A DNA stretch of 1,140 bases from sequence record OR846308.1. One strand, given 5' to 3'. This stretch comes from a phage. Below, in pieces: positions 1 to 1,140 of this stretch. The first letter of the stretch is position 1; each line of letters begins with the position of its first letter. Below the pieces are notes generated by a model. That model saw only the letters and a program-made list of their open reading frames with translations. It ran no database searches and was not told the DNA's origin. The translations under genes and the position numbers were made by a program.

Positions 1-24
1 CATTATCGGTTTTCCTTTTGGTTT

Positions 25-59
25 ATAAACGAAAACGCCAGCCCTGTTCAGGCTGGCGT
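25..59 (-). terminator. Rho-independent terminator for the minus-strand operon
   Basis: Perfect 9-bp GC-rich inverted repeat: arms 35..43 (ACGCCAGCC) and 51..59 (GGCTGGCGT), 7-nt loop 44..50. On the minus-strand transcript the stem is followed by UUUCGUUUAU (plus-strand 34..25). It sits 28 nt downstream of the small ORF stop. No T-run follows the hairpin on the plus strand, so it is directional. Confidence 0.7.
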
Positions 60-87
60 CAGTGGAATGAAGTATGGTGAGTGAGAC

Positions 88-285
88 TCACCGGTTCTGT
101 TGCAGAAGCTGCAGTTGGCGCAGGGTACGGACATCTTCCCTGACCTGTTCGATACAGGGCAACAATGCTGCCGAATCCGTTTTATCCTCATCGTTGTCGA
201 AGATAATTCCGGATTCGCTGTCGATATTGTCCTGCAGCCACGCAATCAGAATATCCAGTGCTGTTTCCGTGGTTAATGATTTCAT
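88..285 (-). CDS. Small acidic hypothetical protein, ~65 aa (possibly DUF957-like); alternative upstream start at 330 would give 80 aa
   Basis: Minus-strand ORF with stop TGA at 90..88. Preferred start is ATG 285..283, preceded by AGGAA (294..290) and lying 11 nt after the YeeW-like stop. The ATG at 330..328 has no visible SD and would overlap the upstream gene by 34 nt. Product MKSLTTETALDILIAWLQDNIDSESGIIFDNDEDKTDSAALLPCIEQVREDVRTLRQLQLLQQNR has about 13 acidic and 6 basic residues. Amino-acid composition looks protein-like, unlike the alternative-frame ORFs. DUF957 assignment is from memory and tentative. Confidence 0.6.
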   Translation of the reverse strand: MKSLTTETALDILIAWLQDNIDSESGIIFDNDEDKTDSAALLPCIEQVREDVRTLRQLQLLQQNR

Positions 286-294
286 GTTGTTCCT
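286..294 (-). promoter_or_regulatory. Shine-Dalgarno for the small acidic ORF
   Basis: Minus-strand TAA-CC-AGGAA-CAAC-ATG: AGGAA at 294..290 with a 4-nt spacer to ATG 285..283. Confidence 0.5.
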
Positions 295-296
295 GG

Positions 297-788
297 TTAC
301 CAGTCGAAAGTGGGTAAACCCGGCAGGCATTCAGCGCTGGCATCCAGATGAATGAGACTGACGCCATAACGCCGGATGAGTGTGACGACCAGACGACGGA
401 ACGTTTTTGACAGACCCAGGCGTTTAAGCCGCAGAACCGGGTACGACCACGCATCGGTACGCAACAGATAGCCGTTACCGGTAAAATGAATCCATTCTGA
501 TTCACCGAAGTCACTGGTCTGGTGTGACAGCGAGTACAGCCAGGCGTTGTCCGTTTCCGTGATATGTGCGGTACTGCAGCGTATGCCGGTAAGGGCAGTA
601 AATGGTGGCGTGCAGTCTGCTGAGGTCCGGTCAGATTCATCAACAACACGAAGGGAGTAGCCGTTATCGCAGACCATGTTAATCAGTTCAGCGAGCTCAA
701 TACCATCAATGTCAACGACAATTCGCCCCATGTTCAGTGCCTGTACGTTAACGCTGTCGGCTTCCAGTGTCAGGGCCAGTTTCATCAT
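297..788 (-). CDS. yeeW: YeeW-like hypothetical protein, 163 aa, function unknown
   Basis: Uninterrupted 163-codon minus-strand ORF, ATG at 788..786 (second in-frame ATG at 785..783), stop TAA at 299..297. The start overlaps the toxin stop (ATGA). A GGAGG Shine-Dalgarno (797..793 on the minus strand) lies 4 nt before the first ATG and 7 nt before the second. Position directly downstream of the toxin and the N-terminus [26 protein letters not shown] match my recollection of YeeW-family proteins; recollection only. Confidence 0.75.
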
Positions 789-797
789 TTCGCCTCC
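783..797 (-). promoter_or_regulatory. Ribosome-binding site and ATGA stop/start overlap coupling the toxin gene to the YeeW-like gene
   Basis: Minus-strand sequence GGAGGCGAAATGATGAAA: GGAGG sits inside the last toxin codons, and the toxin TGA (787..785) overlaps the downstream ATG (788..786). Confidence 0.6.
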
Positions 798-1140
798 GGA
801 TACTTACCCAGGGTAATGTTATTTACCGTTCTGTAATTGTCGCGGGTCATCAGGCCGGTCGCCCTGCGAGCCCGGAGGATATCGATGCTGTTTATTAACT
901 GAGAGCGGGTACAGGCGCTGAATCCCGGCTGGTCGGTACGCACCAGCACGTATTTTTCCACGAGAAAGTTCACCGCATCACACAGTGAAATACCTGCCTC
1001 AATATGCTGCTCAATCACACGTTCATCAGCGAACGGTGTGTCATTCAGCGTGAGGCCGTAGTGCTGGTCCAGCAGACGGCCAAGCAGTGTCTGCCAGATG
1101 GTGACGGGAGACGGGCAGCGAGATACCTCCCGTACATGTG
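785..1140 (-). CDS. cbtA: CbtA/YeeV-family type IV toxin (cytoskeleton-binding toxin targeting FtsZ/MreB), C-terminal part; 5' end lies beyond the window (frame-aligned codon begins at 1138), stop TGA at 787..785
   Basis: The minus-strand frame is open from the window edge to the TGA at 787..785. It translates to ...[117 protein letters not shown]. From memory this is near-identical to E. coli CbtA-family toxins (YeeV, and most like YpjF); no alignment was run. The listed 77-aa ORF (785..1018) is only the stretch after an internal Met. A full-length protein of about 124 aa would start roughly 20 nt past the window end. Confidence 0.88.

Follow-up and report, generated by a model that had tools for sequence, protein, structure and literature searches.

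What is the role of a small gene that begins in overlap with the stop codon of a toxin gene? The question is raised by a stretch of 1,140 nucleotides (nt) from sequence record OR846308.1 (the window, with positions counted from its first letter), in which an open reading frame (ORF) of 163 codons directly follows the gene for a CbtA-family toxin. The original prediction took this ORF for an intact YeeW-like gene at positions 297–788, overlapping the toxin stop in the motif ATGA, and proposed it as a candidate third component of the toxin–antitoxin (TA) module. The intact ORF and the overlap are confirmed in the sequence, with the addition that the gene lies on the minus strand, which had been left out. 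We find that the ORF is an ordinary intact copy of the DUF5983 (YeeW/Aec77) family and is already annotated. As to its function, we consider the chances about even that the DUF5983/YeeW protein is an establishment or accessory protein of mobile elements that is co-expressed with the toxin.

The identity of the 163-amino-acid (aa) protein is clear from its matches to two Pfam models, both with a gathering score of 27 bits: DUF5983_N (PF25638) over residues 5–59 (108.1 bits, E = 1.7e-31) and DUF5983 (PF19419) over residues 70–163 (79.9 bits, E = 1.7e-22), here termed the N- and C-domains. The whole window is 98.1% identical to O157:H7 chromosomes, where the locus is the selC island remnant beside the locus of enterocyte effacement and where RefSeq names the three genes ‘TA system toxin CbtA family protein’, ‘DUF5983 family protein’ and ‘DUF957 domain-containing protein’. 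The annotated E. coli YeeW/‘Aec77’ (RefSeq WP_000976839.1) has equal length, the same position after cbtA, the same ATGA overlap and 97–98% protein identity, and the window copy shows no difference of substance from proteins of this type. Of 5,426 complete E. coli genomes, 4,771 match the ORF and 3,755 cover 80% or more of it, with a median of two and a maximum of nine copies per genome; further, a protein search returned 1,109 homologous clusters at 90% identity, most of the 120 best listed being 162–163 aa long. Thus, intact copies are the rule, as near-full-length versions occur in so many genomes and dominate the top clusters, and the notion that an intact copy is something unusual has to be given up. 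The K-12 copy is indeed a short fragment, as had been stated: its yeeW encodes a 64-aa remnant that differs from the window copy only by an internal deletion, with ~280–360 nt lost in the alignment, the N-domain joined to the tail of the DUF957 gene and the ATGA overlap retained. Equally, the family was rightly said to have no characterized function: Pfam carries it as a ‘DUF’, neither NCBIfam nor PADLOC matched any of the three window proteins, PHROGs gave nothing beyond an unnamed family for the C-domain, and our literature search on yeeW/DUF5983 found no functional characterization and no experimental report of an anti-defense or establishment role.

Despite the label ‘CP4-44 prophage’, the YeeW type is no gene of bona fide phages, since the phage genome collection holds a single close YeeW-type copy, in an unannotated 3.2-kb record. 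A scan of genome contigs with a single YeeW protein yielded 10 loci. Three short contigs that are assigned to unrelated phyla, under the labels Lachnospiraceae, Arthrobacter and Segatella (L003, L009 and L011, respectively), carry 78–94% identical copies of the enterobacterial gene; these are probable cases of contamination or mis-binning.

Is DUF5983 then a working part of the toxin–antitoxin mechanism? Its surroundings are a conserved block of genes on one strand (DUF932, antirestriction, RadC, DUF987, cbeA, cbtA, DUF5983, DUF957, terminator, DUF4942), found on integrative islands of enterobacteria and on some large plasmids; Pfam matches in Trabulsiella and the annotation in Enterobacter confirm this composition. 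Nevertheless, DUF5983 does not strictly co-occur with the CbtA–CbeA pair; the two dissociate both ways. E. coli K-12 has three CbtA-family pairs and zero intact DUF5983, with ykfI and ypjF ending their islands without one. CbtA is toxic in K-12 (PMC5624674), as are YkfI and YpjF, which are neutralized by YafW and YfjZ (PMC5371832), all in a strain whose yeeW is the 64-aa remnant. Likewise, on the IncHI-type plasmid pNDM-CIT the series antirestriction, RadC, DUF987, YeeU and CbtA is followed by unrelated small ORFs with DUF5983 absent, and a cbtA locus on a Plesiomonas plasmid is also without it. Moreover, decay of one gene can leave the other unharmed: in Trabulsiella odontotermitis (L007, 3593–4492) the nine-gene block is complete, with the cbtA homolog frameshifted near its 3' end and DUF5983 intact (66% identical, 163 aa), and K-12 presents the reverse, with yeeW broken and the toxin kept. 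Because toxin and DUF5983 dissociate in both directions, the latter does not seem to be a working part of the mechanism, and we infer that it is dispensable both for CbtA toxicity and for neutralization by CbeA. At the selC island of O157:H7 (L001, 7728–7892), the closest annotated relative, an IS3-family element has cut short the antitoxin gene, and the annotation gives cbtA, DUF5983 and DUF957 as intact; this orphan-looking toxin may be covered by further antitoxin copies elsewhere in that genome.

Where, then, is the family found when the toxin is absent? By tblastn, DUF5983 occurs on 289 plasmids, with at least 80% protein coverage in only 33 and below 60% identity in 255; the sampled matches below 60% identity cover only residues ~70–163, that is, the C-domain. 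CbtA is present on just 66 plasmids. The three plasmid contexts that we inspected have no CbtA, and their DUF5983 genes encode 100–189 aa. On Citrobacter and Serratia MOBP plasmids, the gene lies in the leading region among psiB/psiA, DUF932 and mobA/relaxase genes; the Citrobacter plasmid also has genes for Hok, an N-6 methylase, antirestriction and DUF957 there, and a ParB-family gene is found on the Serratia plasmid; on a Pantoea plasmid it adjoins DUF1281, an N-6 methylase and TraI. In the survey of Samuel et al. (Nature 2024; PMC11541004, supplementary file 3), DUF5983 is family 72 of the top 100 leading-region families, with 618 members, a false-discovery rate of 6.6e-199 and a median position of 2 from the origin of transfer (oriT). 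These leading-region proteins resemble that of the window in their homologous C-domain (29–43% identity, same conserved motifs) and in neighbors that are alike in kind (DUF932, antirestriction, DUF957, DNA methylase). In contrast to YeeW, these proteins of conjugative and mobilizable plasmids consist of the C-domain only (~100 aa) or have ~188 aa, with an N-region in which no relationship to PF25638 was detectable, and they stand beside oriT/mobA instead of adjoining a CbtA toxin. PF25638 was not detected in the plasmid-type DUF5983 proteins and was found in the cbtA-linked lineage only; an hhalign comparison of the YeeW N-domain with the N-region of the 188-aa plasmid proteins gave no relationship (probability 1.5%). 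A few phages also encode DUF5983-named proteins. The island block shares gene content with plasmid leading regions, and the window's island type has the same gene set, with no oriT located.

As its plasmid relatives sit beside the transfer origin without the toxin, the gene looks like a mobile-element accessory. Briefly, we advance the following scenario. Most likely, DUF5983 would be a factor that helps the mobile element in establishment, in modulating the host or in countering its defenses, and it might act by binding nucleic acids or host proteins through an Arg/Lys-rich pair of helices. Its C-domain would belong to the early-entry repertoire of plasmids, one lineage having gained the N-domain and the place behind cbtA.

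Several points weigh against this scenario: (i) the establishment or anti-defense role is drawn from genomic context; (ii) every copy seen from the window's own lineage has cbtA or a cbtA remnant beside it, and for this reason hitch-hiking and a functional link are inseparable in it; (iii) the confinement of the N-domain to cbtA-linked copies could signify a physical tie to the TA pair; and (iv) the island block may be called leading-region-like by its shared gene content only, with no demonstrated oriT.

The second part of our proposal, namely co-expression with the toxin, turns on the junction of the two genes, for which the following features of the window matter:

785–1140, minus strand: 3' part of a CbtA-family type IV toxin gene, with 117 codons in the window, the start beyond 1140 and the stop TGA at 787–785.

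793–797, minus strand: Shine–Dalgarno sequence GGAGG in the final toxin codons (CCG GAG GCG, P-E-A), as read from the sequence.

783–788, minus strand: two in-frame ATGs, the first (788–786) forming ATGA with the toxin stop and the second (785–783) sharing one base with it.

297–788, minus strand: DUF5983/YeeW-family gene of 163 codons plus TAA, whose protein ends in PTFDW.

612–776, minus strand: DUF5983_N N-terminal domain (aa 5–59), by Pfam match and predicted structure.

300–581, minus strand: DUF5983 C-terminal domain (aa 70–163), by Pfam match, conserved motifs and a predicted local distance difference test (pLDDT) score mostly above 90.

The toxin ORF matches Pfam PF06755 (CbtA_toxin, E = 6.2e-58) over profile positions 8–112 of 112 and ends in P-E-A-K before its TGA. 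On the minus strand the junction reads CCGGAGGCGAAATGATGAAACTG, which is CCG GAG GCG AAA TGA in the toxin frame and ATG ATG AAA CTG in the other; the Shine–Dalgarno sequence that had been claimed within the last toxin codons lies there, as GGAGG at 797–793, with a spacing of 4 nt to the first ATG (788) and 7 nt to the second (785). We surveyed this junction in 88 loci, 87 of them with upstream sequence: 80 lie on metagenome contigs, and the others are the window and annotated regions of genomes or plasmids. The metagenome loci were collected with an alignment of closer relatives, so that they are biased towards intact close relatives and give no estimate of the fraction of degraded copies. The 4-nt overlap of toxin stop and DUF5983 start recurs in 83/87 loci, the exceptions seen having a broken toxin gene, and GGAGG lies within 24 nt 5' of the start in 72/88. 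The same overlap is kept on an Enterobacter plasmid despite only 67% protein identity. Hence the translational coupling of DUF5983 to cbtA, as judged from this recurrent anatomy, is confirmed as real, and it probably fixes the co-expression of DUF5983 with the toxin. Ribosomes ending cbtA would restart at the overlapping or abutting ATG with the aid of the GGAGG in the last toxin codons, and, being read from the toxin mRNA in this manner, DUF5983 output would be tied to toxin translation.

The survey also bears on which ATG is used. In 57/88 loci, cbtA ends in AAA CGA/CAA TGA (K-R/Q-stop) and there is a single ATG, homologous to the second one of the window; in the other 31, the window included, the CGA/CAA codon is replaced by TGA, which leaves the toxin one residue shorter and comes with an extra upstream in-frame ATG. 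A single C-to-T change (CGA to the stop TGA) thus also made the first ATG of the window. Since the lone ATG of the 57 loci is homologous to the second of the window, the conserved start is probably at 785, giving a 162-aa product.

Is the coupled gene under selection in its own right? We computed pooled Nei–Gojobori ratios of nonsynonymous to synonymous substitution (dN/dS) from 66 distinct coding sequences, a sample that favors intact close relatives and hence reports selection on intact copies. The whole DUF5983 gene gave 0.21 as against 1.2 and 1.6 in shifted-frame controls, which, along with the 83/87 overlaps, speaks against a chance ORF. By part, the ratio is 0.32 for the N-domain, 0.58 for the linker and 0.13 for the C-domain; the neighbors gave 0.13 for cbtA and 0.17 for the 65-aa downstream gene (49 distinct sequences). 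Length, start and motifs of DUF5983 are kept down to 65% identity in other genera.

Against this backdrop, the alternative that survives best is the one proposed at the outset, though we regard it as unlikely: DUF5983 would be a third component of the CbtA/CbeA module, modulating toxin or antitoxin (e.g., via the N-domain) or acting as a second effector, its dose locked by the coupling. The conserved ATGA coupling and Shine–Dalgarno sequence speak for it, as does purifying selection comparable to that on the toxin; TA-prediction pipelines, too, treat DUF5983 as a constant ‘partner’ downstream of CbtA (PMC10790755). If the idea is still alive, it is owing to a single observation, the detection of PF25638 solely in cbtA-linked proteins. 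On the opposite side stand the K-12 toxins that act, and in two cases are neutralized, beside a yeeW remnant, the IncHI-type and Plesiomonas loci without DUF5983, the decay of either gene beside an intact partner, a C-domain that is far commoner without CbtA, and rearranged loci in which cbtA is deleted and C-domain, DUF957 and DUF4942 remain in frame. What favors the original prediction on this score is the conserved coupling, along with an N-domain seen only in the CbtA-linked lineage; the dissociation both ways leaves the third-component role itself weakly supported.

Three-gene TA modules such as SpoIISABC and the chaperone-assisted tripartite systems likewise have a third small gene in the toxin–antitoxin transcription unit. 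In such modules, regulation or neutralization depends on the third gene. This holds for SpoIISC (PMC4526809). In contrast, the CbtA-family pair works without DUF5983, and the DUF5983 family is widespread without the toxin.

A side observation concerns a further feature of the gene, in which a slash marks the point of breakage:

573–574, minus strand: recurrent rearrangement breakpoint CTGCAG/TACCGCACAT in codon S72, seen in five independent assemblies.

In these assemblies (L102, L105, L106, L107 and L108) the junction is nucleotide-identical, ...GG/TACCGCACATATCACGG in place of the native CTGCAG/TACCGCACAT, and the fusions to the C-domain are in frame and at the same base each time (...GG/TACCGCACATATCAC). 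The upstream partner differs in each case, being cbeA, an Ag43/AIDA gene, a yeeP-downstream region, an antirestriction gene or a YjcZ gene, and GGTACC arises at four of the five junctions. In each event cbtA was lost and C-domain and DUF957 were retained, followed in L105, L107 and L108 by DUF4942 or a remnant of it. An inverted copy of the breakpoint end sequence, as for an end like that of an insertion sequence (IS), was looked for and not found. Candidate causes are deletions associated with the excision of a once-resident IS, or a cassette-like boundary. In many database relatives the homology to DUF5983 also begins at residue ~71–73.

These observations invite an elaboration of the establishment scenario, which we put forward only tentatively and hold to be rather doubtful as a whole. 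The DUF5983 C-domain might be an early-entry effector of mobile elements, active in anti-defense or host reprogramming and perhaps DNA-binding, to which the YeeV/CbtA lineage added an N-terminal adaptor and the ATGA coupling, such that its dose or activity became tied to the cytoskeleton toxin in a toxin-linked establishment module; the breakpoint would then indicate that C-domain, DUF957 and DUF4942 move separately, as a cassette.

Does the predicted structure favor any of these roles? The AlphaFold2 model (from a 27-sequence alignment) has a mean pLDDT of 81.9, with the C-domain mostly above 90, the N-domain at ~70 and a disordered linker at 52–56. The N-domain is predicted, with moderate model confidence, as strand–strand–helix. 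The C-domain (~95 aa) is basic and strongly conserved and displays the motifs CSTAHIT..D, EWIH.TG.GYLLR, PVLRLK..G.S...R.L and TFDW. Across relatives of 29–96% identity, H75, D80, S127 and W163 are invariant, and C71, W99, G106, P117, G125 and R131 are invariant or nearly so. The segment with G125, S127 and R131 resembles a helix–turn–helix (HTH), with sub-significant fold matches to HSF, IRF, Fis and CAP; a Pfam search of the C-domain, even with E values up to 10, brought up neither an HTH nor a VOC family below threshold. Samuel et al. (PMC11541004) log the HHpred label ‘transcriptional regulator’ for DUF5983, which our analysis did not substantiate. A profile search of PDB sequences gave nothing, a Foldseek search against the PDB gave nothing below E = 1, and a structure search of BFVD matched only other DUF5983 proteins from a few phages.

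These results leave little room for a VOC-fold (glyoxalase/bleomycin-resistance/dioxygenase) protein that binds or acts on small molecules, a reading by analogy that we hold to be very improbable. An assignment of DUF5983 to the VOC ECOD group, in which a Salmonella DUF5983 protein is likened to toxoflavin lyase (bioRxiv 10.1101/2024.01.30.577995), argues for it, and the near-invariant C71, H75, D80 and W99 could form a site. Against it, the Foldseek search was empty at that threshold and the predicted order, strand–helix–strand–strand–helix–helix–strand, is not that of paired beta–alpha–beta–beta–beta modules; there is no significant structural or sequence match to VOC superfamily members such as the toxoflavin lyase TflA, whose paired-module topology is absent from the model. 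Least likely of all, a functionless hitch-hiking relic persisting inside an often-copied island block would fit the degraded copies that are easily found (the K-12 deletion, the frameshift in the copy of E. coli ECMA0423, and database proteins that are fused or truncated), but not the dN/dS of 0.21 against 1.2–1.6 in shifted frames, the conservation of length, start and motifs to 65% identity in other genera, or the retention of the C-domain in unrelated plasmid backbones and of DUF5983-named proteins in a few phages.

The rest of the window comprises two features:

88–285, minus strand: 65-codon downstream gene, named ‘DUF957 domain-containing protein’ in RefSeq, 11 nt past the DUF5983 stop.

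24–60, minus strand: terminator-like hairpin GACGCCAGCC-TGAAC-GGGCTGGCGTT with a T-rich tail, which fits an intrinsic terminator and would close the cbtA–DUF5983–DUF957 unit.

All genes of the window are thus on the minus strand, in the 5'-to-3' order 3' part of cbtA, DUF5983 ORF, 65-codon ORF, hairpin and ATG of the next gene. That ATG forms the window end (3–1, minus strand); in intact relatives the gene is DUF4942. Since a strong terminator-like hairpin and T tract follow the DUF957 stop, DUF4942 may form a separate transcription unit. The hairpin sequence is found in K-12 too, and an Rfam search of the window at E values up to 1 gave no RNA family. The product of the 65-aa gene has no model in the Pfam copy used and has a plasmid leading-region homolog (BLASTP, E = 1e-8); the dN/dS of 0.17 supports its being a real protein. 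It is probably the sequence listed in AntiFam as spurious under ANF00264. A 2026 preprint argues that this AntiFam-listed sequence is a real protein. An in-frame ATG at 330 extends the DUF957 frame to 80 aa (88–330, minus strand), so that it shares 34 nt with the end of DUF5983; this layout is present in 41 related loci and may explain the fusion or mis-splitting of the two genes in some annotations.

How far does this change what was known? The adjacency of CbtA and DUF5983 is published, with the latter ‘always located downstream’ (mBio 2023, PMC10790755), and a 2026 preprint finds that DUF5983 and the small gene after it consistently adjoin cbtA/cbeA (bioRxiv 10.64898/2026.06.09.728211). As the gene is annotated in thousands of genomes and its link to cbtA is already in print, the present finding is of modest interest. 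It nonetheless concerns a family that resides in most E. coli genomes, often in multiple copies, is enriched beside the oriT of many enterobacterial plasmids and evolves under purifying selection. If DUF5983 is an establishment or anti-defense factor, this would counsel caution towards TA-prediction pipelines that list it as a ‘partner’ or antitoxin of CbtA, and it would matter for understanding the establishment of islands and resistance plasmids in new hosts.
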